From Candidatus Hydrogenedentota bacterium (GTDB taxonomy: Bacteria > Hydrogenedentota > Hydrogenedentia > Hydrogenedentales > SLHB01), in assembly GCA_903925285.1 (NCBI GenBank), contig CAIYET010001005.1, forward strand, positions 9,703-73,702: a DNA stretch of 64,000 nucleotides, written 5' to 3'. Both the position numbers and the translations under genes were made by a program. Shown here piece after piece: positions 14,436 to 58,690 of the stretch (position 1 is its first letter; every line of letters begins with the position of its first letter). The notes below the pieces were generated by a model. That model was not told the origin of the DNA. It searched no databases and was given only the letters and a program-made list of their open reading frames with translations.

Positions 14436-14458
14436 GACCGCAAGGGCGATCGGTGTCG

Positions 14459-14617: not shown

Positions 14618-14633
14618 TAGAAAAGGAAGTCCT

Positions 14634-17022: not shown

Positions 17023-17060
17023 AGAGTATGCCCTGGTGGACCCGGGGCAAAGGAAGAAAC

Positions 17061-39585: not shown

Positions 39586-41301
39586 ATGCCCAGAACTTCT
39601 TTCGGGAAGGATGAACTTCTCGGATATCTTCAGAAAGCCAGAATAGTCAAACCCGCCCCCGCCGCCATGATCCCCAATCTCCCCGAGGGATATGATGAAG
39701 GGCGCATAGCCGAAGCCCCTGCCGGCGTCCAGCCCATGCGATCCGTGGTTCTGAACCCCGCAAGCCGCCTTTGGGGGTGGCGTGGAAAGCAAACGATACA
39801 GCCGAACCGCCATATCGAATACGCGGTCCTGCGGAAGATCGCCGAAAAGGCTTGGCTCATCAACACCATCATCACGCACCAGCAGAACAAGATTCGCCCA
39901 TTCCTGAAGCCGACTACCGATGAAAACACGCGAGGGTTCCAGCTACGCGCGAAAGACCCCGACGTGGTGCCCAACGATGCCCAAAAGAAGAGAATGAAGG
40001 ATCTCCAAAACTTCATCCTCAAGACCGGCTGGGGACCGGACCCCGAGCGGCGCGACGATTTCGTCCACTTCGGCATGAAGTTCGTTCGAGACTACCTTTC
40101 CATCGACCAGATAGCGACAGAGCTTCAGTACACCGTCGGGAAGAGGATTTTCGCCTATTGGGCCGTGGACCCGGCGACGATCATCCGGTGTACCGAAAAG
40201 GGCTACGAGGGCATGGATGCCGTCCGGTACGTCCAAGAAATCGACATGATCCCGACGGCCTACTACACTGACGACGACCTTGTATTCGACTTTGGCAACC
40301 CCCGGAGCGATATCGACCATGCCGGATACGGCTATTCCCTGACGGAACAGGCCATCGACCTGATTCTGGCGCAGATCAACTCATTCTGGTACAACGCTTC
40401 GGCGCTCACGGAAGACAACCTTCCGCGCGGCATGCTCCTGATGAACGGCGATTCCGACCTTGAAACCGTCGAGGCCATCGAGGAGTACCTCGTCGACCTC
40501 ATGTCCAGCGGCCCCGGGGCGAAGTGGAAGATACCCATAATCCCCTCGGGCATGGTCGGCGGCGGAGAGAACAGCAAGAAAGCGATGGAGTGGGTCCCCT
40601 TCAGGCAGAACAACAAAGACATGGAATTCGTCGAGTGGATCGACCATCTATGGTCCTCCGTCGGGGCTCTGTTCGGCGTGGACCTTGAAGAGCTTGGAAT
40701 CCGGTCGAAGAAGACCGGACCCGTAATGAACGATAACGTTACGCCGCGCATCGAGGAATCCAAGAGCCGGGGCCTGTCCTCGATCCTGTCCGTCCTCGAA
40801 TCCCACATGCAGAAGATCATCGACAAGACGGGCGATGATTGGATCGACTTTGAATTCTTGGGGTATGAGCGCGACGACCCCAAGGCGAAGGGCGATCAAC
40901 TCACAATGGAGCTTTCGACCTACCGCACTATCGACGAAATTAGAAGGGAAAAGGACCTGCCGGCGTTTAACGAGGATTGGTCGAAGATTCCGATGAACGC
41001 TTCTGTGGTTCAAATGAAGATGGCTGAAATGCAGAACGCGGCCATGGCCGGCGGCGGGATGCCCGGGCAAGGCCCCGAGGGCGATCAAGGCTACAAGGAT
41101 ATGGCGTTCGGCGGGGAAGAGGGCGGCCCCGAGGGCGCGCAGGGCGGTGGCGACGGCTGGGACGATCAAGGCGCGGGTGCAGAGAGCGCAAAGGGCGCGC
41201 AGGGCGGTTGGGGCGACCCGGGCGCGAAGAACGCATGGGAAGGCGAAGGCGAGAAGGTTGAAAAGTCCCTGCACGGTGACATTGTTGAAATAATCATATA
41301 A
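39586..41301 (+). CDS. portal protein
   Basis: GGAGGGG RBS, 571 aa. The central and C-terminal layout resembles HK97-type portals (DHLWSSVGALFGVDLEELG is like the RxFGVPxxLLG segment). Gly/acidic-rich tail. Followed by the MuF-like gene. Confidence 0.7.
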   Translation: MPRTSFGKDELLGYLQKARIVKPAPAAMIPNLPEGYDEGRIAEAPAGVQPMRSVVLNPASRLWGWRGKQTIQPNRHIEYAVLRKIAEKAWLINTIITHQQNKIRPFLKPTTDENTRGFQLRAKDPDVVPNDAQKKRMKDLQNFILKTGWGPDPERRDDFVHFGMKFVRDYLSIDQIATELQYTVGKRIFAYWAVDPATIIRCTEKGYEGMDAVRYVQEIDMIPTAYYTDDDLVFDFGNPRSDIDHAGYGYSLTEQAIDLILAQINSFWYNASALTEDNLPRGMLLMNGDSDLETVEAIEEYLVDLMSSGPGAKWKIPIIPSGMVGGGENSKKAMEWVPFRQNNKDMEFVEWIDHLWSSVGALFGVDLEELGIRSKKTGPVMNDNVTPRIEESKSRGLSSILSVLESHMQKIIDKTGDDWIDFEFLGYERDDPKAKGDQLTMELSTYRTIDEIRREKDLPAFNEDWSKIPMNASVVQMKMAEMQNAAMAGGGMPGQGPEGDQGYKDMAFGGEEGGPEGAQGGGDGWDDQGAGAESAKGAQGGWGDPGAKNAWEGEGEKVEKSLHGDIVEIII

Positions 41302-41432: not shown

Positions 41433-43706
41433 ATGACAAAGATCATTCCGATCGTAGCAGTATCCCGGGGGCTCATGGATCGCTTCCTGAAGGCGCGCTC
41501 CGGCCTTATCCAGCGGCAAACATGGGTCAAGCAGGGGTCCGGCCGCAAGGGCCACTACCGCATGCAATGGATCGACCCTTTTACGGGGTTGCCGGCGGAG
41601 AAAGAGCCCGAGAAGCAGTTCGACCTTTTCTCCGGTCCCGGTCCCGACGGGGCTCCCGACAGCGAGAAGGATCGCCGACAGGCTGAAGAGATGGACGCGG
41701 CCGACCAGCCGGCGGGGGGTGGCAAGGGCGGGCCGCTTATAGACACCATCCAGGTATCGAAGGTGCTGAAGAACCAGATTGAGTTCAAGTACGGGAAAGA
41801 AACCTACGCGCTGGGCTCCCGGCGCGACAACGCTATCGCGCTCAAGACGAAACAGCCCGACGGTAAGTCGTGGTACAACTTCGGCGGAAGCATGAATACC
41901 TACGAGAGCTATGGGGATGTCTGCCGGCTTGCGGAAGACCTTAGCAAGAAGTACGGGAAATACAATGGCGACACGGAGCGTTGGGAATTCAGCGACCCGG
42001 ACAAGCCCGCGAAGACCGGCCAGAAGAAGGATGACGGGAAGTACCAGATTTATCATAGTTCCCTGACCGGGGCTATCGACGAAGTGATAGCGCACCTTGA
42101 GAAGCAGGGCCTATTCATGGACGAAGAGGACATTTTCACCTACATATCGACGGGCGACCGCAAGCCCGGCGAAGGCAAGACCAACCGCTACATGCTCCCC
42201 CTCTTCGATGAGAACGGCACCCCTGCAAAGAAGGCGGTGCAGTTCCAAGTCTACGGCATGGGAAACGGCCGGTACGAGTTGAATATGTATACCACCCCCG
42301 CGAAGGAAACCATCTACAACAAGAATAAGGGCCAGATTCTCGGCACGAAAGACGCCGGCATGGCCGAAGCGATTGATTGGGCCTTCGACAACGGGTACGT
42401 CGACACCGACGGGGTAGTGCCCGGGGAAGTTCGCGGACTCGTAGAAAAGCTGAAAAGCTCCGGGGCTCTGTCCGAAGCTGACGAGAAGGACATGATCGCG
42501 AAGGAAAAGGCCATTGTGGCCAAGGATTCGGACCGGGGGGACAAGAGCCAGTCCGAATCCTCATGGCTTGTCACCGCCATGCAGGAAGGGCTGTATCACA
42601 TGGGCGGCTACGACGTTTCCACGAGAACCGCCGAAAACAGGGAGATAGCGCGCCTCGCGGCCGCCGCGCTCAACAGGTATATCGAAAAGGCCAAGAAACC
42701 GGAAGATGCTCCGGCAAAATCAGACAATAGGGTTATGGAAGAAGAATTAGCAAAATACAACATGGAAAATAGGGAAAAGGTTATTGCAGAAGTAGAGCGT
42801 GTATCTGGCAAGAAATTCGGGGATTTGTCAATGAAAGATCGGATTCGCTTTATGGACGAGGCTCAGGCTACTATTACTAAGAAAGCGAACGAGAAGAAGA
42901 CCCTTGAGGCTATGACTTCAGGGCTCAAGCGCGGCGATGGTATCAAGGTCGTCAAGGACAATGGTACAGAGGTATTCGGAAAGTACAACGGCGTTGAAAA
43001 GAACAACGATGCTTCGTGGCTTCGGATGACTCTCGACAACGGCAATGTCCAAGTGATTCGTTCCGATAGGATATCTTCCGTGGATGCCGGGAAGCCCTCG
43101 GGGGAAGAAGGCAAAAAGCCCTTCAAAACAGGGAAGGTCTCTGAATTGGCAGGTGCCATGCAGACGATCGGGGCAATAAAATCCCCCTATCTTATGCACT
43201 TCCCGAGCGATACATGGGGATTCGTTGGGTCCGTCCCCGGGGAACTTTCCTTGGAACACAAGGATGGAACACTCCTGACAGATGAAGAATATAGTAAAGT
43301 TGCACTCGGGGGGGTGGGACTATACAGGTCGACAATCCAGACAAAGGTATGGAAGACCCCTGAAGAGGCGATGAACGCGGCAAGGGCTTTAGGATATGAT
43401 GCTGACGATCTTGAGTCGGCACAACGGGAAGGGCTAAAGTCGTCCAAAATGAGCGGCGGGGTCGATTCCGTGTCCCTGCGCGATATGTGGGAAGTCCTCG
43501 ACCCGGGGCCGTACTCCGACAACATAGCCGCCTATGAAGACGCGGCGAAGAAGATCAAGGAAAGCGCCGCATCGTGGGCGAGGGAAAACAAGAAGACCGG
43601 CGATGGCATGGCGCTTATCAAGGAATACATGGCGACAAAGGGCATGAAGAAGTCCTTCATGGGCTCCTTCCGCTTGGGACTGGCCAAAGCTCTCGGGAAG
43701 AGGTAG
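41433..43706 (+). CDS. large head-module protein carrying the recurrent N-terminal module (putative virion/ejected protein)
   Basis: ATG (MTKIIPIVAV) after GGGGAGG, in frame with track ORF 41400..43706. N-terminal module SRGLMDRFLKARSGLIQRQTWVKQGSGRKGHYRMQWIDP. The remaining domains are not recognised. Confidence 0.5.
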   Translation: MTKIIPIVAVSRGLMDRFLKARSGLIQRQTWVKQGSGRKGHYRMQWIDPFTGLPAEKEPEKQFDLFSGPGPDGAPDSEKDRRQAEEMDAADQPAGGGKGGPLIDTIQVSKVLKNQIEFKYGKETYALGSRRDNAIALKTKQPDGKSWYNFGGSMNTYESYGDVCRLAEDLSKKYGKYNGDTERWEFSDPDKPAKTGQKKDDGKYQIYHSSLTGAIDEVIAHLEKQGLFMDEEDIFTYISTGDRKPGEGKTNRYMLPLFDENGTPAKKAVQFQVYGMGNGRYELNMYTTPAKETIYNKNKGQILGTKDAGMAEAIDWAFDNGYVDTDGVVPGEVRGLVEKLKSSGALSEADEKDMIAKEKAIVAKDSDRGDKSQSESSWLVTAMQEGLYHMGGYDVSTRTAENREIARLAAAALNRYIEKAKKPEDAPAKSDNRVMEEELAKYNMENREKVIAEVERVSGKKFGDLSMKDRIRFMDEAQATITKKANEKKTLEAMTSGLKRGDGIKVVKDNGTEVFGKYNGVEKNNDASWLRMTLDNGNVQVIRSDRISSVDAGKPSGEEGKKPFKTGKVSELAGAMQTIGAIKSPYLMHFPSDTWGFVGSVPGELSLEHKDGTLLTDEEYSKVALGGVGLYRSTIQTKVWKTPEEAMNAARALGYDADDLESAQREGLKSSKMSGGVDSVSLRDMWEVLDPGPYSDNIAAYEDAAKKIKESAASWARENKKTGDGMALIKEYMATKGMKKSFMGSFRLGLAKALGKR

Positions 43707-43708
43707 CC

Positions 43709-44887
43709 ATGTCGGAAGTCCGTATCAGGGTCCTCGATGTCAACGACGCTAACCGCCGCCTGAAGTTCTCTCGGGCGGTGGAAGGCCTTGCCAAGGCGAT
43801 GCAGATACCCATTACCGTGCGGCCGCGCGACAAGGAAAACGCTGAAAAGTTCGTCTACGCCGCCGAAGAAGAACTGGTAGCGGCATGGAGAAAAGACTTT
43901 GCCAGCGTCCTAGATACGATCTACTTCACCGTCTGTGACGTTCTGGACCTTCCCCGGGTGACGACCTTCTCCAAGGCCATAAGGGAACAGGACCCCGAAC
44001 AGAAGCGCCCGATATCCGAAGCCATATTTTATCACCACAGGGTAATATTCAACCCGGAAACGGGGCTCCCGATCTACCGCGAAGACTTCGAGAAGATCAT
44101 CCACGCGATAGAGCGGTTTCTGAACAAGCGGCTGGACCCGTCGGCGAAGAAGATCGTCCTGCACTCCGTTGCCCTCGGGCGCGTCATGGCGCGGCGGCTT
44201 CTTGCGTTGAACGCGGCCGAAATACGCAAGCTGAAGCTTGAGGAAGTCGTCCACGAGGGCAAGCCGATCGAATGGATGGCAGAGTCCCTTGAAAGGCAGA
44301 ACCGCGCCATGGGGCCGTTGCGCCCTGAAGAGCGGGACCGGCTGTCGGAACACTACAAGCATATTTCGCGCATGGTCGACGTGGCCGAACAGTCCATGGG
44401 GGACCATATCACGCAGATGGAAGAGGACACCGTGCATGCGGTACGGCGCTCGATCATCGACGGGGTAAAGGGCCGATCATCCAAGACAGAGATAGCGCAG
44501 GACCTTTTCAACCGATTCGGGGATCTCAATCGCGATTGGGGGCGCATCGCGGAAACGGAAACGGTGGAATCCTTCAACAATGCTTTCCTGAAGGAAACCG
44601 CCGCCATGGCCGAGCCCGGGGAGAAAGTGTACTTCCGCCGCGTTGAAATGCGCGACGACTATGTATGCTCTTTCTGCGAGAAAATCCGGGGGGAAGTTGC
44701 CCTATATGTAAACTCTCCGCTGTCCGATGACAAGATCGAGGACCCGGTGGCCAAGGTTGCTATCTGGGAGGGCAAGAACAACATCGGCCGCAAGGCCAAG
44801 AACTACTGGATGCCGGCCGGAACGGTCCACCCATGGTGTCGCGGTTCATGGGAAAGATTCTTCCCCGACATGGAGGTAATAGTGTGA
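43709..44887 (+). CDS. MuF / SPP1 gp7-like minor head (head morphogenesis) protein
   Basis: Internal ATG (MSEVRIRVLD) 3 nt after the upstream stop. C-terminal DYVCSFCEKIRGE...PAGTVHPWCRGSWE resembles the conserved HPxCRC end of the Phage_Mu_F domain. Confidence 0.65.
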   Translation: MSEVRIRVLDVNDANRRLKFSRAVEGLAKAMQIPITVRPRDKENAEKFVYAAEEELVAAWRKDFASVLDTIYFTVCDVLDLPRVTTFSKAIREQDPEQKRPISEAIFYHHRVIFNPETGLPIYREDFEKIIHAIERFLNKRLDPSAKKIVLHSVALGRVMARRLLALNAAEIRKLKLEEVVHEGKPIEWMAESLERQNRAMGPLRPEERDRLSEHYKHISRMVDVAEQSMGDHITQMEEDTVHAVRRSIIDGVKGRSSKTEIAQDLFNRFGDLNRDWGRIAETETVESFNNAFLKETAAMAEPGEKVYFRRVEMRDDYVCSFCEKIRGEVALYVNSPLSDDKIEDPVAKVAIWEGKNNIGRKAKNYWMPAGTVHPWCRGSWERFFPDMEVIV

Positions 44888-45870
44888 CTGAAGTAATCCT
44901 TGTCCTGTCGAAGGCGATCCGCCCGGGCCTTGTGGCCAAGTACGTCCCGGTCCAGCGGCGCGGGGACAAAATGTATCTCGGGAAGGTATGGACCCGCCCC
45001 GAGCCCCCCAAGACCGAAAAGCCGGGCTGGGCCGCAACGCATTACGGCGAGTGTCCGTACTGCGGGAACCGGCAAATGCTTCCCGGTGGAGTGCTGGCTG
45101 ACCATGGCTACAATCTTCATTTCGGATTCAGGAACGGGACATGCCCGGGCTCGCGCGAGAAGCCGTTCGAGATATCGAAAACCTTCACCGAAAAGAAAGT
45201 AGAGGAAGTTCGGGCCTCGATAGAGCGGCACAAGGAAAAGATTGCGGCCGGGGATTTGGTTGTTCACGAAAGCGGAATAGACTCAAAGGGGAAGGTTGTA
45301 AACCGAGAGATAAGTAGGGCGAAAATAATCGAGAACATGAGAGGGTTTATAGCCTTCCAGCGGGAACGCTTGGAGGGATGGGAGCCCCGGGAATTGACCC
45401 CCATTCGCGGCAGGACTGTTATTGACGAAAAGACGAGGCTACGAGAACTGAGCGAGGCCGAAAAAAAGGTTATGATTCAGGCCCAAGAGCAAGGTGAAGT
45501 GAAGGAGACGGGGAGATTGTGGAGGCGAAATGGGTGTGTTGCCTATGACAGGATTTCCCGGCTCGTAAACGATGGGTTTCTTGAAATAATTGAAAGACGT
45601 AATGGCAAGTACATGGAAGAACAGGTTATCCGTGCGAAGATAGCCCCCGGAGCCGCCGCCGCCTTCCCTGCGCTGGAAAAGCCCATCCGGGGCGGGAAGA
45701 TGGTTCAAGCCATGTGGGGAAAGCTGAAAGCGGAGGGCGAATTGAAAACGAAAGCCGGAAGCTCTCAAGCCTACTTCACGGCTGAAGAGCTTGCCCAAAG
45801 AAACCCGGACCGCGTGATATTGGTGGACAAGGATTACGATGCAATGTTCGTCGTCTTACGCAAGAAATAG
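44884..45870 (+). CDS. hypothetical head-module protein with the recurrent N-terminal module
   Basis: GTGA overlap with the MuF stop, GGAGG upstream, in frame with track ORF 44833..45870. VTEVILVLSKAIRPGLVAKYVPVQRRGDKMYLGKVWTRPEP. Also has a CPYC...C Zn-like cluster. Confidence 0.5.
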   Translation: MTEVILVLSKAIRPGLVAKYVPVQRRGDKMYLGKVWTRPEPPKTEKPGWAATHYGECPYCGNRQMLPGGVLADHGYNLHFGFRNGTCPGSREKPFEISKTFTEKKVEEVRASIERHKEKIAAGDLVVHESGIDSKGKVVNREISRAKIIENMRGFIAFQRERLEGWEPRELTPIRGRTVIDEKTRLRELSEAEKKVMIQAQEQGEVKETGRLWRRNGCVAYDRISRLVNDGFLEIIERRNGKYMEEQVIRAKIAPGAAAAFPALEKPIRGGKMVQAMWGKLKAEGELKTKAGSSQAYFTAEELAQRNPDRVILVDKDYDAMFVVLRKK

Positions 45871-45879
45871 GGGGATGGA

Positions 45880-48800
45880 ATGATCCGCTTGATGATACCC
45901 ATGGAGAACCTTGATACGCTTGAAAAAGCGCGCGCCGGGCTTGTCTACCGAACCGACCTCCCCTATCACCTTTCCAATGGAGCCTTGGCCTTCCGGCGGG
46001 GCTGGGTCCGTCCTGAAGACGTGAAGGCCCTGAATCAGGCGAAGAAACAGGGCGATGCGGCGAGCGTGGTTGGCAAGTATGAATACGAAGCCGATATGTT
46101 CGACGAGGCCGAAGGGGAGCCGTGGGACAGCCCGAAGGCGGAAGCAAAGCCCGAAGATCCGGAAGCCATTGCCGGAAAAGAGAAATGGAACATTTCCGGA
46201 ATGGGCTCCGCAAAGGTTTCGGAATTTGTTGTAGCGGCTCCCGAAGTGAAGACGCCGGAATGGCAAGTATCTGCGGAGCCCGAGAAGTCTAAGGGACATA
46301 TCGCGTTCTTCGGGTCCGGGGAACGGCAAAAAGAGCTTTACCAACTTGATAACGGTGATATCTTCACCGCGTATCTGGGCGAAGTCATAGACATGGACAC
46401 AAAGAACAGGATCGGGCGATGGGAAGGCCCGGGCTGGCAAAAAGACACCATTATGAAAAACCTCGGCATTGTCCAAGAGACAGCCCCCGAGGCGAAGGAA
46501 GAGCCGAAAGAAGCGCCGGCCCTCGATATCCCGGGAGACATCGTTCCGGACGAAATGATCGCCCGGATTGTTCTTTCAGAGCGCCCGGAGGAAGCCCCCG
46601 AGGGATGGATTATTTTCAACGCACCCCGGCCGCTGGTGGGCACGAAGTTCTGGCAGGGCCCTTTCGTGTCCGGGCTTTACTACGCGGCGGTGGACCCTTC
46701 CGACCCGGTAGCCAAAGACTTCATAAGGTCGAACTATCGAGACGGGGCAAGCGTCCTCATGTACCAAACGGAAGAGGCCTATGCCGCCGGCAAGCGGAAG
46801 GAACTCGCGGCCGAATACGAAGACGAATTCAAGAAACATCCGGACCTGAAAGAGTCGTTCGACAAGTACACCGTGGAACAAATCCTCAGTATGGAGCCCC
46901 CCGCTACCACCAAAAAGCTCAAGGATTATCGTAGAGCGATCGAATCGACCTCCGGGGTCAAAACGGACGGGGTAAAGGCCCCGGACGCAGGGGCCAAGCA
47001 GGACGCCCCGGCGGCGGGCAAAACAGAGCCATCGACTATCGCGGAAAGGATATCCAAGCCCGAAATGCCGGACGGTGAAGAAGCGAAGACCGGCGACGTT
47101 CGATCCGACTTGGAACAGGCCATCGCGAAGATGAAGTTCGCGGACTATGGTTCGTGGTCGGCCTCGGGCAAGCACGTCGCGCCGGCGAAGCGCATGGAGT
47201 TGAATCAGCAAATCGCGGAACTCCTCCTCCTGCCCTCGAACGACCTGACGCCGCAAGAGCTTCAGGCCATCCGACAGTATTCAGGGTTCGGCGGCGTCAA
47301 GGCCGACGATGAACGCGGGGTCCTGTACGACTACTTCACGTCGCCCCCGGTGGCGCGCATGGTGTGGAAGCTGGCGAACAAGATCGTGCCCCTGAAGTCC
47401 GGTGCCCGGGCGCTCGAACCTTCCTGCGGGGCCGGCGTGTTCTTCGAGGTAGCGCCGCAAGGTGTCGACCTGACCGGCGTAGAGTTCGACAGCCGCACGT
47501 CGGCCGTGGCGGGGCTCCTGCAACCCCAAGCCCGCATCTACCATTCGTCCTTCGAGCAATTCAACCTCCACCAGAAAGAGAAGTTCGACGCCGTGATAGG
47601 CAACGCGCCCTTCGGCGACCGCTCTGTGGCGACCTCCTTCCTTGATGATCCCGACGAGAAGAGCCTTGACCGATACTTCGTCAGTCGATCGCTCGACAAC
47701 CTGAAGGGCGGCGGGACCATGGCGCTGATTGTCGCGCCCGGGGTGATGGACAATGTGTCCAACTCCGCATGGCGCTCGAAGATGCTCCGGAAGGGGCAAT
47801 TCATCGGCGCGATGCGACTGCCCAACCAGTCCTTCAAGCACACCAATACCGGCGTCTCCCCCGATATCGTCATGTTCCGGGCGTACCCTGAAGACATCAA
47901 GGCAAGGCTCGCGGTCATGTCGGATCAGGAAATGAAGGCCGCCGGCTTCTACGATGACGCATGGGTGGACGGGACCTACTACGACGAGTGCCCGGGGCAC
48001 CGCCTCGGGAGGGTGGAGCGCGGACAATTCGATTCCGAAATCACCGTGGGCAAGCTCGAACCGGCCGACATGGATCGAGCCCTTGAAGTGTTCGAGCCCC
48101 GAGAGCTTCATAGCGCGGAAGACTTCGGGAAGATACGGAACCTGACGCAAGGGACCCTGCCCGAGGCCCCTGATGAAAGCGAGAAGCTTTCCGAGCCCGA
48201 GGCTGAAGCTGTCGCGGCGAAGACCCTGCGCGTGGGGATGACGAAGAGCGAAAACGGGAAGATATACCGCCTGAACGAAAACCACCGATGGGAGCTTGTT
48301 CAAGCAGGAAGCGCGGTGGCGGCAAAGCTCGATCGGGTGAAGGAGATATCGGAAACCGTCCGCAAGATCCGCGAATCCATGCGCGCCGACGAGCCCGTGG
48401 ACGACCTTCAGCGTCAAGCCCGTAGCCTCGTGGAAGCCTATGAAAAGGACTTCGGGGTAAAGCACTCCGAAGACAAGGATATCCAGAAGTTCATCAAGGC
48501 CAACCCGGCGATCGCGAATGTCTACGAAGCCCTGACCATCGCTATAGATTCGGAACTTCTCACGAAGCAGAACGTCTACGACAAGGAAGTGGAAATCGTC
48601 GACGGGCACCGCCCCGCGATTCGCGCGCTCATGGAGCTTCAGCGGGACATGATGGACGCGACGAATGAATCCATCAAGGCCCGGTATCCGAATGGAGCCG
48701 AGGGGCTCATCGAGGCCATGTGGAGCGATCCCGACGTTTTCACTGACGACGCCGGGGTATTCAGGCTCCGCGAAGACTTCATTTCGGGCAACGCATGGGA

Positions 48801-51800: not shown

Positions 51801-52287
51801 CCTCTATGAAGGGGAAACCGTGTTCAACCCGTTCACAGACAAGGGGCGCAAGAAGATAAGAGCCCTTGTTTCCGCCGGAAAGGTATCGCCCTCTCAATAT
51901 GAGCGATGGGAGGAGTCTTTCGGGGATCTCGGCGCGCGCGATATTCTCCACGAATCGGCGATTAAGGTATTCGATGCCCAGCCCCTTGCAAAGCCGGTCA
52001 TGGCCGCTTTCGACAAGGCCCCAAAGCTTTCCGACAGTTACTATAGGCACAATGATTGGGTCAACGTTGCGGACTTGGCAACGGAAATAGGGGAAGCCGA
52101 CGTTGACAACGTGGAGGAAGTTCTTAAAAAGCACCCCGACATAGAGACATCCTATCAGCTTGTCGGAGCTGGTCGCCGCTATGATCTTTATGCCCGCCGC
52201 AAGGGGGGGGTGCAAAAAGCATTGGGACACAGTAAAATAGTCGTAAAGGGGGAGCAAGTCTATGTACTACACGAACGAAGAAGTTGA
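45880..52287 (+). CDS. DarB-like polyvalent protein: N6-adenine DNA methyltransferase + SNF2/DExH helicase (2135 aa)
   Basis: MTase motif I LEPSCGAGVF (about nt 47413) and motif IV GNAPFG (about nt 47599). Helicase motifs GTGFGKT (about 49430), DEMH (49891), TATPLTNS, and QRNGRIDRQG (about 50908). N-terminal recurrent module. Confidence 0.8.
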   Translation: MIRLMIPMENLDTLEKARAGLVYRTDLPYHLSNGALAFRRGWVRPEDVKALNQAKKQGDAASVVGKYEYEADMFDEAEGEPWDSPKAEAKPEDPEAIAGKEKWNISGMGSAKVSEFVVAAPEVKTPEWQVSAEPEKSKGHIAFFGSGERQKELYQLDNGDIFTAYLGEVIDMDTKNRIGRWEGPGWQKDTIMKNLGIVQETAPEAKEEPKEAPALDIPGDIVPDEMIARIVLSERPEEAPEGWIIFNAPRPLVGTKFWQGPFVSGLYYAAVDPSDPVAKDFIRSNYRDGASVLMYQTEEAYAAGKRKELAAEYEDEFKKHPDLKESFDKYTVEQILSMEPPATTKKLKDYRRAIESTSGVKTDGVKAPDAGAKQDAPAAGKTEPSTIAERISKPEMPDGEEAKTGDVRSDLEQAIAKMKFADYGSWSASGKHVAPAKRMELNQQIAELLLLPSNDLTPQELQAIRQYSGFGGVKADDERGVLYDYFTSPPVARMVWKLANKIVPLKSGARALEPSCGAGVFFEVAPQGVDLTGVEFDSRTSAVAGLLQPQARIYHSSFEQFNLHQKEKFDAVIGNAPFGDRSVATSFLDDPDEKSLDRYFVSRSLDNLKGGGTMALIVAPGVMDNVSNSAWRSKMLRKGQFIGAMRLPNQSFKHTNTGVSPDIVMFRAYPEDIKARLAVMSDQEMKAAGFYDDAWVDGTYYDECPGHRLGRVERGQFDSEITVGKLEPADMDRALEVFEPRELHSAEDFGKIRNLTQGTLPEAPDESEKLSEPEAEAVAAKTLRVGMTKSENGKIYRLNENHRWELVQAGSAVAAKLDRVKEISETVRKIRESMRADEPVDDLQRQARSLVEAYEKDFGVKHSEDKDIQKFIKANPAIANVYEALTIAIDSELLTKQNVYDKEVEIVDGHRPAIRALMELQRDMMDATNESIKARYPNGAEGLIEAMWSDPDVFTDDAGVFRLREDFISGNAWEKIDALEKAVADHPGDEWVRNREKWQAGADAMRDAVGWIPVEDADVFPQGSWIPEDLINLWAGNGMGRPARKGYRYAKNEEGKWGLAALKGDSKWDWKTREYIETKEGDWQEENDEFIYFLNNQKQRSKYTDTETYNKNAVGNFKAWLATNEEARKEVENLFNRNFNTELGVPTKTYAVHLDGWNDEVVLQPWQWQTIHHLYRQGKGLSALGTGFGKTLAAVGLYALLRQEGKTRRAFFQVPNNKVKDWVKTFAKAMPGLKVGSVDPETKGYNDQTKRFSWYQELASGDYDVIILPESSSSEIQLNSENDDMIVADISSQMTTTEGKTQRKKEQALATAEGKLSGGKKNVTITFEELGCDTIFCDEMHRMKNLFTSSLSRETGMNDGRRSDRALSFFKKCEYMRRGHEGKGVFGLTATPLTNSPLEYYNMFYHIAPEMLSSMGIANIDAFINNFANIEMGQKIDSFTGQVKDGKVLKGFKNLRALQDMFFKYTDLQNDPTKIGLKKPTPTNRPNIIPIQETQTAEIRAIADEVKKYREMSKEKRADMHENFLTYYTRMRTASLDLELYDPVRFKGWKNPKIEKMVDSAMETLNARGGGQVVFCDRVVSSDGTINMHEKIKAALVAKGFAENEIVVVNGLTKSGTKASEQSLEKEVSSAIDGFNSGKYKIIIGTTQTIGEGVNLQKNSSALHHMDIPFRPSDFIQRNGRIDRQGNKQSTVELHTYATAGTIDNYSMALVAGKENWINQLLKTKSNVFTNPNGEGMDMDEILLSLTQEWGDLKGAEEQKAALASKKAAAIQADNQKKAHEFLRQLSLMRGSLIGYKGDKGSRDYQNRLRKIDNLEAGLQTNPEFRHPEILGQDTGPFMYDEGRKLVIKKGDLVISSGGVYRVADFDYKERKYFLLSAIDGKSGAYENAYTSATQRSYYSGNSEDNFIFVPNPSQPQVDRYISLIDPEGFYKQPKAFKADNYEEFVKINARGHSIKEKYFAINKKGEISGKLGSLYEGETVFNPFTDKGRKKIRALVSAGKVSPSQYERWEESFGDLGARDILHESAIKVFDAQPLAKPVMAAFDKAPKLSDSYYRHNDWVNVADLATEIGEADVDNVEEVLKKHPDIETSYQLVGAGRRYDLYARRKGGVQKALGHSKIVVKGEQVYVLHERRS

Positions 52288-52642
52288 CTCCTTCGAGAAA
52301 AAAGTGCAAATCCGGACCGGGGAATCCTACGTCCGGAAGATCGCCCTCGGGGTCGCCTCGATGCTTGAGGCTCAGCCATCCCTTTACAAGACCTTCGGCG
52401 TTTACTGGTGGGCAATCAAGGCCGCGCTCAAGAAATACTACCCCGGCAAGGCGTGGTTCATGGGGGGATATTTCGATCAACTCATGTACGAGCGGGCATG
52501 GCATGGATCGCTTTTCCGCACCGTACTGGCGGCAACTATCTACCATGGCAATCATCGGCTCATAACTTCAGGGCACGAATACATCGGGAAGGATGAAGAG
52601 GAGTATACCTATACGCTCTTCGATGAAGACGCAGGGTTTTAG
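52262..52642 (+). CDS. hypothetical protein
   Basis: GGGGGAG RBS. 126 aa. Overlaps the last 26 nt of the 2135-aa gene. Trp/Tyr-rich. Lacks the recurrent module. Confidence 0.45.
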   Translation: MYYTNEEVDSFEKKVQIRTGESYVRKIALGVASMLEAQPSLYKTFGVYWWAIKAALKKYYPGKAWFMGGYFDQLMYERAWHGSLFRTVLAATIYHGNHRLITSGHEYIGKDEEEYTYTLFDEDAGF

Positions 52643-52652
52643 GCGGGGGGAT

Positions 52653-53939
52653 ATGCGAATAATCTTAGTGGTTCCAGTATCGCGGGAAAGGATGCTGAAG
52701 GCTCTCAATACATCCCGCCTCGTCAAGAAAGAAGTCACCGTTCGGCGCGGCGGGAAGACATTCCAGCAAATGCGCTGGCTTCGCCCTGACCAAGTGGCCC
52801 CCGGGAGGAAGCCGTCCGCCCCTGTGGAACAGAAGCCGGCGCGGGAAAGCAAGCCCGTCGACAACTCCCACCCCCGGATAAAAAAAGACGATCCTGTATT
52901 GTTCAACTATCAGGGGAAGCAGATTCAGGCGAAAGTCATCGACGATACCCATAAAGAGGGCGTTGTCGCTCAGAGCGAGTCCGGGGAAAAGTTCAACGTC
53001 CGCTGGCAGGACATGGCGAAGAAGGCCGCCCCCGAGGCCGCCGCACTGCCAGAGGACAACGTACAGGCTCAGGTTGCGTGGATGATCGACCCCAGCCGGA
53101 CCGACAATTCCAAGAAGATCGACAAGAAACTCCTCGTCCAGCCGTCCGGGGATCTCGATGAACTCTACAAGCTGGCAGAGGAAGCCCGCGCCGGTTTCAG
53201 GCAGTTCATGGAGAAGGCCAAGAGCGATCTAGGGGCAAAGGCGCTTCTTTCCCGGCCTGTCCTGAAGAGCAAAGAGCGTATCCTTGAGAAGATGAAAGAG
53301 GACGGGGTTACGGATGCAAGCCAGATTTACGACATTGACGGCCATACCCTTGTGTTCGACGGCCTAGACGGGGTAGCGAAGGGGCTGAAGTATTTCATGG
53401 CGCAGGGCGCGGCAATCAGGATCAAGAACAACTATGCCAACCCTTCACCCGCCGGATACCGGGACGTGAATGTCAACATCAAGCTTCCTAACGGGATGAT
53501 ATCAGAGATCCAGATAAACACTGAAGCGATGATGGAGGCAAAGGAAGGGGTGGGGCATATCTTCTACGAGGTCATGCGCGAGGCTCTTGGAGCCCTGCCG
53601 CCCCCGCCGCCCCCGGCACCGTATGCTGATATACTGGAAGCACAAAAGGCTTTCTATAATTTCGCGTGGGAAACGTCACAGAAGGGTCAGGAAGACGCCA
53701 ACCTCAAGGCCTCGCTCTTGTCGATCGCGCGGCCTTTCTGGAACAAGTCGGCGAACAACTTGGGGGAGCGGGATTCAAGCTGGTTGTCGGACAAAACGCG
53801 GAAGAGGTTCATGGACTTCGGTTCCCAAGCGAATGGAACATCGTCCTTCTCGAAGAACTCAAGTCCCTCGGTCGTCAAGTCTATCTTGGGCATCTTGTTC
53901 CCTCCACGCTCAAAGTATAGACGCGGTTTCCGGGCATGA
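52653..53939 (+). CDS. RelA/SpoT-homologue (small alarmone synthetase-like nucleotidyl pyrophosphokinase) domain protein with the recurrent N-terminal module
   Basis: Internal ATG (MRIILVVPVS) in frame with track ORF 52593..53939. Synthetase-domain pattern LKSKERILEKM...IYDIDGHTLVF...NPSPAGYRDVNVNIKLPNGMISEIQINTEAMMEAKEGVGHIFYE, to be compared with RelA_SpoT KSxxSIxxK / DxxGxR / GYRSxH / EIQIRT...H..Y. Confidence 0.7.
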   Translation: MRIILVVPVSRERMLKALNTSRLVKKEVTVRRGGKTFQQMRWLRPDQVAPGRKPSAPVEQKPARESKPVDNSHPRIKKDDPVLFNYQGKQIQAKVIDDTHKEGVVAQSESGEKFNVRWQDMAKKAAPEAAALPEDNVQAQVAWMIDPSRTDNSKKIDKKLLVQPSGDLDELYKLAEEARAGFRQFMEKAKSDLGAKALLSRPVLKSKERILEKMKEDGVTDASQIYDIDGHTLVFDGLDGVAKGLKYFMAQGAAIRIKNNYANPSPAGYRDVNVNIKLPNGMISEIQINTEAMMEAKEGVGHIFYEVMREALGALPPPPPPAPYADILEAQKAFYNFAWETSQKGQEDANLKASLLSIARPFWNKSANNLGERDSSWLSDKTRKRFMDFGSQANGTSSFSKNSSPSVVKSILGILFPPRSKYRRGFRA

Positions 53940-56900
53940 CAAGTAAGGCGGCAACTTTTATGGAAAAGGCTCTCGACCGCTCGAAACTCATAAAGACGCC
54001 GACGATCATGCACGTCGACGGCAAAGCCTTCCCGACATACCGCTGGAAGGCGCGGCCCGAAGCAGAGCCCGCAGAGCCACCCCGGGCGGAAGCCCCGCCC
54101 GCCGGCTATGTCCCTACGAAGACCGTAACGTCCTACAAGCTCTTCCGGGTAAGCAAGGATCATCCCGGGGAAATCTTCCCGCTGTTCGTTGACGCCAACA
54201 CCCCCATACCCTTCGGCGAATGGGTGGCGGCCAAGCCCGGCGACAGGGACCCCAAGGTAACGGACCATGTGAAATCCAAGCTGGGACCCCTAGCCTATCG
54301 CCCCGGCTTCCATGCCGGCAGAATCCCCGTCGCTACCCATATCGGGCTGAAGGTGAAGAAAAACGACAAGGCCCCATCCTTCCGCAACCCTGATTATGTA
54401 TGGGCTGAAGTAACCTTCGCCGATGACGTTGACTGGCAGTCCGAAGCCGCTCGCCGGGCTGTCCGGGGGAAGGATGGACAGGTCATAGCGCGGACCGCCC
54501 ATATCACCGATCAAGTTCCGTATGGGGGGTACTACTCTTACAAGACGAACTCGAATATGACGGGCGAGTGGATGATATCGGGGACCATGAAGGTAAACCG
54601 CATCCTGACCGACGCCGAAGTGGCCGAAATCAACGAAAAGACGAAGTTTTCGGACCTCCCAAGGGTTGAACCGCTTGATATCTCCGTGTATGGGTTCGGC
54701 AAAGACGGCCGGCCGGCAAAGTCTGTCCAACTACTTCCGGATAGGGACTTCTACGACTATCAAGACTCGCACATGGAGAAGACCCATAAGCGCCTTTTCT
54801 ACATTGACGACTTGGACAACCAATACGCTGAATGGATCGAGAACGCTGGCGACATAGGCCGGGAACTTGCCTCGCATCAAGAAACAGCCGACCCCTTGTA
54901 CATTGGGGAAAAGCTCCGGAAGTTGTCGAAGGTCTTTATATTCGCCGAGTCCTCCCGGGCCGATCTGGGCTTTGTTGATACCAGCTTTTCTTTCCCGAAG
55001 ACCGATAGGGCGATAATCAAGGAATATGTCCGGCAATACGATGAATATAAGGGAAATCTAGGGGTGCTGGGGCAAGCATCGAAGTCGCTTTCTTATGCGT
55101 TATTGTCGAGGAATGGCCCCATGTTCCTTGAGGCTTTTATAGATTTTGTCGCGAAATACAACGTCCTGAAACAATCGCAGGGGTTCGAGAAGACAAAGCT
55201 TCCCGATAGCCTATCCCGCCTCGTCGACGACAGGATGCAGAAATATGGGGCTCCTTCCCCGGTAGCGCCCAAAGAGGATGACAGCGAATTCAAGCGGGCC
55301 GGAAAGACCGTCGACGGCCTTGAAGTGCTGGACGATATCCCGAACACATCGTCGATAGGCTCTTCCTTGAACGAATATGAATCCCTCCCGGGGATTCGTG
55401 AAGTTCCCATGAGCGTGTTCAGTGATCCAGATCCGTATAAAAATTACTATGCGGCCGACGATATCGACCGGACATACCGGCTGGCTGAAGAAATAAAACA
55501 ATCCGGACAGATTAAGCCGCTGATTGTCGTGATGGACAAGAAGGGTCCCTATATCCTAGAGGGCGGGCACCGCTGGTCGGCGCTGGGGGTTCTCGGGAAG
55601 AAGTCTTTCCCAGCTCTTGTGGTGATGGACACGGAAGACACCGGCGTTGAAAAGGCCCTCGATTATTCAAAGCTCTCCAAGGTGCCCGTCGTCGCGCATG
55701 CCAAGGTGGGGGACTATCAAACCTCCCGATGGAAGAAGAGGGAAGAGCCGGCGGCCGCCCCTAACCCGGCTCCCGTGCAGAGTGTGGCGGACTTCATTTC
55801 GTTCATGTACCAGCTTCCCCGAAACGCCGTGAATCAAGTGAACATTGAAAAGATCGACGATATAGACCCCGCGCTTGCGGAGGAACTTCGCAACAACAAG
55901 GAAGTGTTCAAGAAAAAGCTCTGTTACAACAACTCTTGGCAAGCGGCGTCGATGGCCGATGGCATTGGGAAAAAAGTGAACTATGTGGAGGGTTTTGTCG
56001 CCCTTGGTGTCGGCGGTTGCATGATCCCAATAGACCACGCTTGGAACTCGATAGAGGTGAACGGAGAAACAAAGTATTTCGACGTTACCAACGATATCGT
56101 ATGGGGCGGCGATATGTCGGTTCAAAAAAACGGATACGTCCCCCTATATGCAACGGACGACCTTCTCACCATAGGAAAATATATAGGGCGAAGCCCGGTG
56201 ACAAAGGCTTTCGAGGCCATGCGCAAGATTCGGGCCGCCGCCCGGGATTCCGACATGCCGCCCTCTTTCGCGTCCGTTCTTTCCACCCTGAAGGATAAGG
56301 TGGGCGAGGTCAAGAAGTCCCTGACCTACGGCGGGCACCCCCTTGAGGACCGCTACAAGGTTCACGGCATGGATATCTCGATCGAGACAAAGAAGGGCTC
56401 CACGCGGCGCGGGACCGACAAGGACGGGCACGAGTGGGCGACGAAAATGAACGCCGACTACGGGTATATCCGGGGCACCGTGGGCAAGGATAAAGACCAT
56501 CTTGATTGCTATGTCGGCCCGAATCCTGAATCCACGAAGGTTTTCATAGTCCATCAAAACGATCCGACGACAGGGAAGTATGACGAAGACAAGGTTATGC
56601 TCGGGTTCGAGTCGGCCGCCGAGGCCAAGGCGCTCTACATGAAGCAGTACGACCGCCCGGGGTTCTTTGGCTCGATGGATGAAACCGATATCGAGAAGAT
56701 GAAGGAAAGGGCGTTCTCCAAAGAGGCCAAAGGCAGGATTCTTGTGGTCAAGTCCGTCGACGGGGAACTGGAAGAGCGGGCCGGCAAGGGATATTCCCGG
56801 CTGGACAAGCTCATCGAAAGGAAGTATGGGCCGGAAGTAATGATAGGAGTAGAAGTGGAGTTGGAGCATACTGGAAGCCGCGAAGAGGCCAAGAGGATCG

Positions 56901-58690
56901 CGCTCGATCACCTTCATCAAGACTATCACTATTACTCGAAGCTCATTGCGGCCGGGCTTGTCGATGAGCCAAGGGCTCTGGCGATAGCGAAAGAGGAAGG
57001 TGTCGATATGAAGAAGTCGCTACGGCTTATGGTCCCGATTCTCGACAAGGCCATGAAGTCCTCGAAGCTGATCCTTCAAACGAAGATGGTCACGCGCGAG
57101 GGCACGACCTTCCCGATGAAGGTGTGGGTCCTGCCCGGGGAAGCGAGCCATGCCGCGCAGTTCGATATGTTCGAGGCGGCCGAAGTGGACGACACGGTGA
57201 AGAAGATCGCCCCCCGGGAGCCCGAGCGAGATCCCGTGAAGATCGAGGCGGCTATCCAGTCGGCAACCCCCGAAACCCGCAACGAGGTCCAAGCGGTCCT
57301 GTTTGGAGCGAAGGAGGAGGAGCCCGAGGCCGCCGAGCCCCCGTATGAGTTCACCCCGGGACGCCGCACGGTTTCGGCCTACAATGGGCATGGCTACACG
57401 AGTCAGGAGGAGCTAGAAGACTATACTGGCGTATTCCCTAAGAGAATGAAGCTGATTCGGCAAGCCAAGGCCCTCAACGATCCGCGCCCTTCATGGATAC
57501 CGGCGGCCGACGAGGGAGCTTTCTCTGGGTGGAAATGGGAGCGCCGATTCCCGTATGCGAGGATCGCCCCTAACGAATATGTTGTTCAGGTCACGAAGGA
57601 AAAGATGGTGATTATGAGCGCGGACGTGCTGATAGCCACCACGAACTACTACAAGGCGAGGGAAAAAGAGCGCCGGAGGATTGAAGCAGACAAGTGGAAT
57701 CAGGACAAGAGGGAACGTGCAAGAATATGGCTGGAAGAACACAAGAACGACGACGACGATAAGAACCGGGAATTTAGATATAAATCCAATATCAAATACT
57801 ATCGCGAAGTAGTAGATGGAAAGAGGTTTCAGAAACCCAAGGCTGTCGTTGCCATGGGTTCAAACAAAATGTGCCATGACCAATCGTGTATCATCAAGAA
57901 ATACTCCGAAGACGATGACTATTCCATGTGGACCCATCTTCACGATGCCATGGAAGAGCTTGACCAGAAAGCGATCGACATGCAACTTCAGGCCGAAGAC
58001 GATGGTAACACCTACTCGAAGGGGGAAAAGACCTCCTACGGGAACATGGGTACGAAGGACACCCTGCTTGAGAAGTACGGCGTCAAGGTCAAGCGGCAGA
58101 ACGGGAAAGAGATTACCGATACCGAAACCGAAGAGATAAAGGCCGCCTTGGACCACATATTTTCCATTTTCGGCGACAGGTCTTCCATGGCGCGCACGTT
58201 CGGGCTGAAGATATCCCATGCGGCCGAAACCGCCATGCACGCTCGAAAGGCAATCGGAATCTTCTTCCCCTCCCATCGGGCTATCGGCGTGTCGGCCGGC
58301 GGCGGGGCGAAGCAGTTCGGGTTCACCCTTTCCCACGAGTGGGCGCACTTCATGGACAACTACCTTGGGGGGGACAAGTACCACTATTCCTCGGACGACT
58401 TCAAGTCCATTTCCCACGCGATAGCGAATACCTTCAAGTCGAATATGGCGAAGAAACAGAAGAGCGACTACCAGAACCGGACATGCGAGTGCTTCGCCCG
58501 GGCCTTCGAGCAATACTTTGCCATGAAGACCGGGGATGGCGACGAATACCAGCGGATGATGTCTGACGCCGGGAACCACCCCTCGAACGATGTTTTCCTG
58601 AAAGAAGTGTCCCCGCTGATAGATAGATTTTTTTCCGAGCGCGGCGATATGCTGAAGGCCATGAAGATTACTTTGTGGTCAATAAGATAG
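53936..58690 (+). CDS. 1584-aa polyvalent protein with ParB/Srx-like, transglutaminase-like Cys peptidase, PPase-like and HExxH zincin domains
   Basis: ATGA overlap. ParB-like KPLIVVMDKKGPYILEGGHRWSAL (about nt 55530). Cys/His/Asp triad candidates CYNNSWQAA ... IDHAWNSIEVNGETKYFDVT (about 55920-56090). YGYIRGTVGKDKDHLDCYVGP (PPase-like, about 56460). LSHEWAHFMD plus CECFARAFEQYF (about 58330-58510). Three copies of the recurrent module. Confidence 0.75.
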   Translation: MTSKAATFMEKALDRSKLIKTPTIMHVDGKAFPTYRWKARPEAEPAEPPRAEAPPAGYVPTKTVTSYKLFRVSKDHPGEIFPLFVDANTPIPFGEWVAAKPGDRDPKVTDHVKSKLGPLAYRPGFHAGRIPVATHIGLKVKKNDKAPSFRNPDYVWAEVTFADDVDWQSEAARRAVRGKDGQVIARTAHITDQVPYGGYYSYKTNSNMTGEWMISGTMKVNRILTDAEVAEINEKTKFSDLPRVEPLDISVYGFGKDGRPAKSVQLLPDRDFYDYQDSHMEKTHKRLFYIDDLDNQYAEWIENAGDIGRELASHQETADPLYIGEKLRKLSKVFIFAESSRADLGFVDTSFSFPKTDRAIIKEYVRQYDEYKGNLGVLGQASKSLSYALLSRNGPMFLEAFIDFVAKYNVLKQSQGFEKTKLPDSLSRLVDDRMQKYGAPSPVAPKEDDSEFKRAGKTVDGLEVLDDIPNTSSIGSSLNEYESLPGIREVPMSVFSDPDPYKNYYAADDIDRTYRLAEEIKQSGQIKPLIVVMDKKGPYILEGGHRWSALGVLGKKSFPALVVMDTEDTGVEKALDYSKLSKVPVVAHAKVGDYQTSRWKKREEPAAAPNPAPVQSVADFISFMYQLPRNAVNQVNIEKIDDIDPALAEELRNNKEVFKKKLCYNNSWQAASMADGIGKKVNYVEGFVALGVGGCMIPIDHAWNSIEVNGETKYFDVTNDIVWGGDMSVQKNGYVPLYATDDLLTIGKYIGRSPVTKAFEAMRKIRAAARDSDMPPSFASVLSTLKDKVGEVKKSLTYGGHPLEDRYKVHGMDISIETKKGSTRRGTDKDGHEWATKMNADYGYIRGTVGKDKDHLDCYVGPNPESTKVFIVHQNDPTTGKYDEDKVMLGFESAAEAKALYMKQYDRPGFFGSMDETDIEKMKERAFSKEAKGRILVVKSVDGELEERAGKGYSRLDKLIERKYGPEVMIGVEVELEHTGSREEAKRIALDHLHQDYHYYSKLIAAGLVDEPRALAIAKEEGVDMKKSLRLMVPILDKAMKSSKLILQTKMVTREGTTFPMKVWVLPGEASHAAQFDMFEAAEVDDTVKKIAPREPERDPVKIEAAIQSATPETRNEVQAVLFGAKEEEPEAAEPPYEFTPGRRTVSAYNGHGYTSQEELEDYTGVFPKRMKLIRQAKALNDPRPSWIPAADEGAFSGWKWERRFPYARIAPNEYVVQVTKEKMVIMSADVLIATTNYYKAREKERRRIEADKWNQDKRERARIWLEEHKNDDDDKNREFRYKSNIKYYREVVDGKRFQKPKAVVAMGSNKMCHDQSCIIKKYSEDDDYSMWTHLHDAMEELDQKAIDMQLQAEDDGNTYSKGEKTSYGNMGTKDTLLEKYGVKVKRQNGKEITDTETEEIKAALDHIFSIFGDRSSMARTFGLKISHAAETAMHARKAIGIFFPSHRAIGVSAGGGAKQFGFTLSHEWAHFMDNYLGGDKYHYSSDDFKSISHAIANTFKSNMAKKQKSDYQNRTCECFARAFEQYFAMKTGDGDEYQRMMSDAGNHPSNDVFLKEVSPLIDRFFSERGDMLKAMKITLWSIR

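Follow-up and report, generated by a model that had tools for sequence, protein, structure and literature searches.

What purpose is served by a short protein module that recurs at the start of one large protein after another beside a phage portal gene? The question is raised by the window analysed here, a stretch of 64,000 nucleotides (nt) of contig CAIYET010001005.1, filed under a Candidatus Hydrogenedentota bacterium. Five of the seven genes which follow its portal gene encode proteins that start with a similar module of ~45 residues (an earlier sequence-only reading had counted five of six), and further copies are located inside a protein of 1584 amino acids (aa). The module was found to be a genuine conserved protein domain, which is attached to many different effector domains in rows of phage head genes. 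A portable head-loading (cargo) tag, by which these proteins would be encapsidated and ejected together with the DNA, is slightly favoured as its function.

The module as a conserved protein domain

A hidden Markov model (HMM) of the seven window copies, run against the six-frame translation of the window, returned its own members only (next best match 6.8 bits), and leave-one-out analysis inside the window was weak for three copies; evidence was therefore sought outside the window. Five independent copies were identified by the same model on the related contig L006, with scores of 29–58 bits compared with noise of 5.7 bits. A profile assembled from 122 members outside the window, each <50% identical to any window copy, recovered six window copies at 67.6, 48.9, 30.0, 26.9, 25.4, and 19.2 bits, with window noise at 4.7 bits. 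These scores are significant against shuffled controls, the best of 1000 shuffled versions of five proteins having reached 10.1 bits. An exhaustive search of 1.84 billion protein representatives with a nine-copy profile yielded 208 carriers at E ≤ 0.001, with 15 at E ≤ 1e-10. No match was obtained when a word-indexed protein database was queried with the seven-copy alignment, as the module is too short and too divergent for 5-mer seeding, and an alignment of 142 sequences was too degenerate for pattern scans. Similarity by chance or through N-terminal compositional bias, to which the weak leave-one-out result would point, is refuted by the independent profiles, the shuffles and the whole-library search, and its probability is practically nil.

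The seven strong copies proposed in the sequence-only reading were confirmed by the profiles, the shuffles and the relatives, and are located as follows:

41433..41579, plus strand: copy 1, N-terminus of a 757-aa protein (MTKIIPIVAVSRGLMDRFLKARSGLIQRQTWVKQGSGRKGHYRMQWIDP); 26.9 bits with the non-window profile, 37.3 bits with the family profile
44884..45000, plus strand: copy 2, N-terminus (GTG start) of a 328-aa protein (VTEVILVLSKAIRPGLVAKYVPVQRRGDKMYLGKVWTRP); 30.0 bits with the non-window profile; GGAGG ribosome-binding site upstream
45880..46014, plus strand: copy 3, with a divergent hairpin, N-terminus of a 2135-aa DarB-like methylase-helicase; edges only, 9.3 and 8.9 bits
52653..52787, plus strand: copy 4, N-terminus of a 428-aa RelA/SpoT-domain protein; top scorer, 67.6 bits with the non-window profile
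53936..54058, plus strand: copy 5, N-terminus of the 1584-aa protein, core from Met9 (53960); 25.4 bits with the non-window profile
55619..55750 (starts 55619/55646), plus strand: copy 6, internal, residues 562–605 of the 1584-aa protein, directly past ParB_N; 19.2 bits with the non-window profile, 28.6 bits with the family profile
57008..57136, plus strand: copy 7, internal, residues 1025–1067 of the 1584-aa protein, flanked by DUF5661 and the C-terminal phrog_22901/LPD1 domain; non-window profile score 48.9 bits

Copy 3 is counted, on the strength of its edges, as a divergent seventh member: the edges LEKA--RAGLV and GWVRPEDVK occur in the correct order, likewise in the L006 and L012 orthologues, and a canonical module is found in the L017 orthologue of the DarB-like protein (47.7 bits) and in the DarB-like protein of Thermus phage Lalka27b. 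A weak eighth copy had also been proposed near 48205, inside the 2135-aa protein. This candidate (48190..48290, plus strand) scored -1.4 bits with the non-window profile, was missed by every HMM scan and is rejected as a module. No DNA-level repeats or recombination hot spots were found between the module copies, which are paralogues of old standing with conservation at the protein level.

Shine-Dalgarno-like sequences were identified 5' of 41433, 44884, 45880, and 52653, which suggests that the first module residue (Met or Val) is probably the true start of these four proteins rather than the longer open reading frame (ORF) starts at 41400, 44833, and 52593. Copy 1 is preceded by a GGGGAGG ribosome-binding site at 7 nt and has orthologous copies in L006 and L012. 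For the 1584-aa protein, the start of the gene caller's product (P0001) is Met9. The ATG of copy 7 (57008) has GAGGAAGG 8 nt upstream, at Shine-Dalgarno distance (56990–57010), and an internal translation start at this position is possible. However, the Met at 57008 is not conserved in homologous internal copies, and GAGGAAGG may be no more than the codons for Glu-Glu-Gly.

In the consensus of 142 instances, a hydrophobic stretch, which is optional, is followed by L(64%)-E-K(97%)-A(82%); the consensus continues five residues later with L(100%)-V(76%)-x-K-x-V-x-V(86%)-x-R-x-G(85%)-K-T-[FY](83%), and ends in x4-W(93%)-V(80%)-x-P(83%)-[EGD]-[ED]; K16, L23, and W42 are invariant or near-invariant. 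A signal peptide was considered and rejected, as the hydrophobic stretch spans just 6–7 residues, is optional, and internal copies exist. When copy 4 was modelled by AlphaFold2 with the family alignment, the mean predicted local distance difference test (pLDDT) score was 81.8, with a helix at residues 11–15 and a hairpin at 24–32/35–43. The predicted fold thus consists of a short helix followed by a beta-hairpin that is long and basic, after which comes a flexible linker. The core has a mean net charge of +4.6 over 34 residues and is rich in K, R, T, and V, while the 40 residues past it are near neutral (mean net charge -0.17).

The module does not correspond to a catalogued domain in the collections searched. 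In the window proteins, no Pfam model matched the module at E < 0.1, and no single Pfam family was hit by more than two of the 142 instances; the families hit were all unrelated, and none was an LPD, MuF, or PBECR family. There was no match in NCBIfam and none at E ≤ 10 in a profile search of Protein Data Bank (PDB) sequences. Foldseek found no significant match: the best PDB structure (E = 0.88) was the RNA-binding hairpin of ribosomal protein S7, and the best matches in BFVD (E = 0.11, likewise non-significant) were to Herelleviridae proteins that are uncharacterized and to a protein of Staphylococcus phage JD007 termed "virion component". The module is embedded in eight PHROGs (26588, 25452, 23829, 1917, 27103, 27686, 26037, and 4162), of which one carries the label ParB-like nuclease and another that of virion structural protein, and the named cluster members of module proteins are all called "hypothetical protein". 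In the literature searched the module is not described. No short N-terminal or junction hairpin module is mentioned in the passages searched of the survey of polyvalent proteins by Iyer et al. (2017; PMC5512222).

Head-gene rows and shuffled effector cassettes

Every readable context of the module was found to be a row of phage head genes, and no conjugative-element context was seen among the contexts examined. In the window, the row is as follows:

39586–41301, plus strand: portal gene (PHROG portal-family matches)
from 41433, plus strand: 757-aa protein, between the portal and MuF-like genes
43709–44887, plus strand: MuF-like head-morphogenesis gene (weak PHROG head-morphogenesis matches)
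from GTG 44884, plus strand: 328-aa protein
45880–52287, plus strand: 2135-aa DarB-like N6-methylase and superfamily 2 (SF2) helicase (N6_Mtase, Eco57I, ResIII, Helicase_C, DarB-like PHROGs)
52262–52642, plus strand: Ulx-like gene, 126 aa (phrog_1629, E = 5e-15; P1 Ulx, E = 6e-7 by phmmer)
from 52653 (segment to 53939), plus strand: 428-aa RelA/SpoT-domain protein
53936–58690, plus strand: 1584-aa polyvalent protein (ParB_N at residues 514–569, InPase, DUF5661, LPD1)

As had been claimed, the module is absent from the small ORF at 52262 and, in HMM scans, from the MuF-like gene. The 1584-aa protein, with its ParB_N, InPase, DUF5661, and LPD1 domains, and the 2135-aa protein, with its methylase and SF2 helicase, both classify as polyvalent proteins, and in the window such genes adjoin the portal and MuF-like genes. 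The 2135-aa protein also gives a tblastn match to P1 darB.

The same row, consisting of (portal), module-bearing protein, MuF, DarB-like, Ulx-like and module-bearing effectors, is shared by the window, L006, L012, and L017. In L013 the order is large terminase (TerL), portal, MuF, Ulx-like, a polyvalent protein with three copies, a module-bearing protein and an SNF2 helicase, with the major capsid protein further on; the Ulx-like gene of this contig precedes the module-bearing polyvalent protein in the absence of any DarB-like gene. In L014 the small terminase (TerS), TerL and portal are followed by a module-bearing protein, MuF and a module-bearing giant protein, and in L015 TerL is followed by two module-bearing proteins. 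Among cultured phages, Bacillus phage CP-51 carries the module on gp27, gp28, and gp30, directly upstream of the portal (gp31), and its relatives JL, Shanette, and S4-1 are carriers as well. Other cultured carriers are Exiguobacterium phage vB_EalM-132, Lysinibacillus phages, YungSlug and Thermus phage Lalka27b (on its DarB-like protein). Goe8 gp045, also a carrier, adjoins TerL.

The first copy ends within the first 60 residues in 86 of 147 proteins, compared with 37 expected from random placement, and a further share of first copies lies at residues 61–120, which fits over-long gene calls. Two or three copies occur together in 25 proteins, and it is the large proteins that carry this many. 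The claim that the portal-proximal large proteins share an element has proved genuine, and the N-terminal bias of this element is strong.

The domains to which the module is attached are diverse. They include Zeta_toxin, RelA_SpoT, ART-PolyVal, ADPrib_exo_Tox, PARP, several ADP-ribosyltransferases (ARTs), InPase, ParB_N and Topoisom_I (topoisomerase IB); NUDIX, 2H phosphoesterase, HipA_2 (HipA-like kinase), RadC, S-adenosylmethionine (SAM) lyase, DNA ligase, MuF_C and LPD1; and DUF5661, DUF6582, DUF3626 and the DarB methylase-helicase pair. These partners match the repertoire which the text of the polyvalent-protein survey attributes to injected polyvalent effectors (Iyer et al., 2017, PMC5512222).

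The module and its payload were found to be shuffled as cassettes. The module always precedes phrog_22901/LPD1, the C-terminal domain of the 1584-aa protein, and the resulting cassette is free-standing, with the module N-terminal, in P0247, P0176, P0223, and P0211; in P0141 and P0127 it occupies the first position, and it is internal in the 1584-aa protein of the window, P0124, P0201, and P0122. InPase and LPD1 cassettes follow one another in different orders in different proteins. The occurrence of one cassette in both free-standing and internal form directly supports the earlier proposal that internal copies mark fused former cargo genes. Directly 5' of the internal module of copy 7 lies a DUF5661 segment (..YYxKLxxaGLVDEP.., 56840–57007, residues ~969–1024), and the same segment directly before an internal module was also observed in many unrelated polyvalent proteins (P0124, P0201, P0140, P0127, P0162, and P0149).

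In another instance, the payload alone is exchanged. The slot of the RelA/SpoT protein (52653–53939 in the window, also in L006) is occupied in L012 (10001–11494), in the same synteny, by a Zeta-toxin protein. Residues 1–122 of the two proteins are 58% identical and the similarity stops after this point, a pattern known from polymorphic effector systems, in which the head is constant and the payload varies. Within the shared 122-residue head, module and linker are accompanied by a small segment (residues ~75–121) that is also conserved.

A short motif, QxD[LM]F, is located in the flexible linker about 5–25 residues past some copies of the module. In the window it was found, with one variant, at three sites:

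41616..41630, plus strand: QFDLF, 13 residues past copy 1
46087..46101, plus strand: EADMF, a variant of QxD[LM]F, past copy 3
57158..57172, plus strand: QFDMF, 8 residues past copy 7

The motif (QFDLF, QLDLF, QADLF, or QFDMF) follows 24 of 177 module copies, compared with 0.11 expected, and is sometimes found in tandem. A DNA repeat (D7) joins two of the window sites, 46092–46118 and 57163–57189 being identical at 24 of 27 nt (89%) and encoding DMFDEAEG and DMFEAAEV, respectively. The motif tracks two payload families, namely the protein that intervenes between portal and MuF and the phrog_22901/LPD1 domain, and is a feature of these two cassette families and not of the module itself.

The phage to which the window belongs has few relatives in the collections searched. 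No close relative was found in GenBank, where its portal is <30% identical to any other; IMG/VR held no relative of the RelA/SpoT protein and only distant relatives of the portal, and a portal search of species-representative genomes gave no match. Among 5.8 billion clustered proteins the 1584-aa protein has a single close relative, P0002, whose contig is the syntenic L006. Cargo-row relatives and some module proteins (L017 and the cluster of P0139) are binned with Spirochaetota metagenome-assembled genomes (uncultured Spirochaetes, Rectinema, and Treponema), which is a hint to the host range of the phage lineage. Upstream (5') of the portal row the window carries genes for the baseplate, the tail and recombination, together with the large terminase gene (25442–27031). 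Downstream, a giant ORF from 58701 (58701–64000) extends past the window end and has an N-terminus of tail-fibre or Mtd type. In L012, which is syntenic with the window, a diversity-generating retroelement (14287–17868; Mtd_N, bAvd, and reverse transcriptase) comes after the cargo row. The 328-aa protein of the window contains, past its module, a Cys-rich stretch (45030–45200; CPYCGNRQ...GTCPG) which resembles a small zinc ribbon and matches phrog_17208, a family with no function assigned. Neither a protease gene nor a scaffold gene was found in the window region examined.

Head loading weighed against other functions

[quoted passage not shown] As the DarB-like protein of the window carries the module at the position of the P1 signal, and as four of its neighbours share the module, a head-loading tag is favoured here, on balance, over other functions. 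During head assembly, the module would bind each effector cassette to a head-interior component conserved across this portal lineage; the docked enzymes would be encapsidated and would exit with the DNA at infection, and the internal copies would represent the heads of once-separate cassettes fused into polyvalent proteins. The head-loading interpretation of the sequence-only reading is accordingly plausible and partly supported.

The portal vertex is preferred as the putative receptor because the portal family, which is common to all module-bearing phages examined (108–558 bits compared with the window portal), is the sole partner that all of these carriers share. The last ~87 residues of the window portal (nt 41038–41298) form an acidic, Gly-rich tail with a net charge of -12 that ends in EKSLHGDIVEIII. 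Acidic low-complexity C-terminal tails were found in seven of the seven portals examined (net charge -5 to -19, compared with about +4.6 for the module), and such tails, if they face the head interior, would complement the basic hairpin. In the window lineage, a terminal KS[LI]...[IV]EI[IVT][IV] motif is kept in the portals of L006, L012, L013, and L014, and the acidic tails of the CP-51, Lalka27b, and phage 812 portals lack it. The possibility that the portal tail is itself a half-module was rejected on negative profile scores.

MuF-like and Ulx-like proteins might assist in docking, and packaged DNA would be an alternative receptor. MuF homologues were found next to the cargo genes of L006, L012, L013, L014, L017, and, weakly, in Lalka. 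Ulx-like homologues were found in the window, L012, L013, L017, Lalka27b, and P1, and in the window the Ulx-like gene is directly past the DarB-like gene, as it is in P1 and the Lalka phages.

Some carriers are linked to virions indirectly. Proteins of phrog_1917 and related Herelleviridae proteins with the module are annotated as virion proteins. For the family of Goe8 gp045 and Gp87 of Staphylococcus phage 812, the annotation in several phages is likewise that of a virion protein, and Enterococcus phage iF6 has it as a putative N-acetyltransferase. This family is a core Herelleviridae gene beside the large terminase (L009, 8713–9597; L011, 6914–7714), with 526 phage records. In phage fRuSau02, the gene that directly follows the one for the large terminase encodes the 266-aa RS_088, which was among the proteins detected in purified virions with liquid chromatography–tandem mass spectrometry (PMC5618024, Table 1). 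From its identical length and gene position, RS_088 would be the orthologue of phage 812 Gp87.

A number of observations weigh against a head-loading tag. No experiment or structure places a protein with a canonical module in the virion or shows that the module is needed there. The copy in Gp87 is degenerate, lies in the first half of the protein and is weak (12.6 bits), and the fRuSau02 proteome of 78 proteins is very inclusive, with likely contaminants among them (PMC5618024). The association with one portal family may reflect shared phage ancestry only. No MuF homologue was detected beside the module-bearing genes of CP-51, so MuF is not a universal receptor. Another 118 InPase-containing polyvalent proteins lack the module, which is hence not a general requirement for such cargo and marks a lineage rather than all of it. 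The seven paralogous copies in the window are only 20–40% identical, which is loose for elements sharing one receptor, and the family profile shows no similarity to residues 1–150 of P1 DarB (-2.1 bits). Finally, a lone, strongly basic hairpin (+4.6) would equally fit a nucleic-acid-binding element.

An element of this last kind would resemble a basic ribbon arm and would tether the effectors to the phage DNA in the capsid, or to incoming or host DNA, rather than dock them onto a head protein. It is consistent with the best (non-significant) Foldseek matches, to the RNA-binding hairpin of ribosomal protein S7, with the many partners that act on DNA (DarB-type methylase-helicase, ParB, topoisomerase IB, and ligase), and with the P1 DarA-Hdf complex, which touches both DNA and capsid (PMC12810830). 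However, many other partners (Zeta toxin, RelA/SpoT, ARTs, and InPase) have no role on DNA, there is no significant similarity to a known DNA-binding fold, and DNA binding alone leaves unexplained both the N-terminal and junction position and the restriction to head-gene rows, with no conjugative polyvalent proteins. DNA binding as the whole function is the main alternative but is considered unlikely, and were the DNA to serve as a packaging tether, it would merge with the cargo tag. Cleavage was weighed in the same way, with the module as a proteolytic maturation site, or a mere inter-domain hinge, at or near which the polyvalent proteins are cut. Copies do lie exactly at domain junctions, P-[EGD]-[ED] is conserved past the Trp, and processing of polyvalent proteins is argued for in the text of Iyer et al. 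(PMC5512222). Most copies, however, are at true N-termini, where there is nothing to cut; no protease gene or known cleavage consensus is tied to the module, and a structured, conserved domain of 45 residues exceeds the needs of a cleavage site. This function is regarded as very improbable.

The QxD[LM]F motif raises a further alternative, in which module and motif together form a host-directed address (for the sliding clamp, the replisome or another hub) that acts after injection, with no role in packaging. The consensus of bacterial beta-clamp-binding motifs is QL[SD]LF, and the motif of the Pol III alpha subunit is QADMF. The pentapeptide of the phage proteins fits this consensus and, like clamp-binding motifs, occupies a flexible, probably disordered linker, and its 24 occurrences compared with 0.11 expected, sometimes in tandem, speak for such an address. 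Yet the likeness is a pattern match only, which is the sole evidence, and is limited to the downstream pentapeptide, the module itself not being included; the motif follows only ~14% of copies, tracking two payload families, and a host address leaves the head-gene context and the N-terminal bias unexplained. As an account of the module it is improbable. Alongside a cargo tag, the motif would point to a second, host-side address. A two-part address of this sort, with the module as the universal cargo tag of the whole portal lineage, docking on the tails of the portal dodecamer, and QxD[LM]F directing two payload families to the host sliding clamp, is a conjecture to which little probability is given. 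If true, proteins would be addressed to the virion first and the host replisome second, the lineage would span uncultured myoviruses to Herelleviridae-type and Thermus Lalka phages, and one HMM would list its injected proteome.

Injected head proteins are hard to predict from sequence, and in P1 a motif common to the Dar N-termini was sought by the authors and not found (PMC9024508; PMC12810830). A head-loading tag, if true, would offer a sequence handle for listing injected effectors (anti-restriction and host-takeover enzymes), including those of therapeutically relevant Herelleviridae-type phages. It would also explain the assembly of polyvalent proteins by fusion of tagged cassettes and provide a tool for putting foreign proteins into phage heads. 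The hypothesis is open to direct test in cultured phages (CP-51, Goe8-type, and Lalka).

Comparison with known systems

The closest parallel is drawn with the DarB signal of P1. In both cases the element is located at the extreme N-terminus of a DarB-type methylase-helicase with a Ulx gene next to it, so that the cargo is homologous, and the module is proposed, by analogy, to send an internal head protein into the capsid. It differs from the P1 Dar N-termini in that one module is common to five window proteins and recurs internally, and no module was found at the P1 darB-ulx locus. The sequence-only reading had likened the two in role and not in sequence: for the DarB-like and Ulx-like cargo the likeness goes further, to homology, and, as it had stated, it does not extend to the sequence of the signal. 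The relationship is thus one of functional analogy on homologous cargo and not of membership.

The capsid-targeting sequence (CTS) of phage T4 comprises ~10 residues; it attaches to the scaffolding core, and the prohead protease later cuts it off. Like the CTS of IPIII, the module is an N-terminal address common to several proteins proposed to be packaged and injected, and is portable in principle (T4 CTS cited in PMC9024508). Unlike it, the module is a predicted structured hairpin of ~45 residues with no known cleavage, which also occurs internally, and the T4 system is set apart by this description.

The polyvalent proteins and MuF-effector fusions, as described in the text of Iyer et al. 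(2017, PMC5512222), have the same effector repertoire, the same head-gene context, and a constant delivery part with a variable payload. Their LPD domains are, according to that text, globular. In contrast to the MuF fusions, the module-bearing proteins lack a MuF domain, and the module is not a Pfam LPD, MuF, or PBECR domain.

Cargo-loading peptides of encapsulins are short terminal tags on flexible linkers, sometimes repeated, which load diverse enzymes into an HK97-fold shell. They provide an analogy only, as the encapsulin is a bacterial nanocompartment and the peptides are unrelated in sequence to the module. Set beside the known N-terminal capsid-targeting addresses, the module is, as a candidate address, unusual in three respects: it is a structured domain, many cargo proteins throughout a portal lineage have it in common, and it is kept at fusion junctions.

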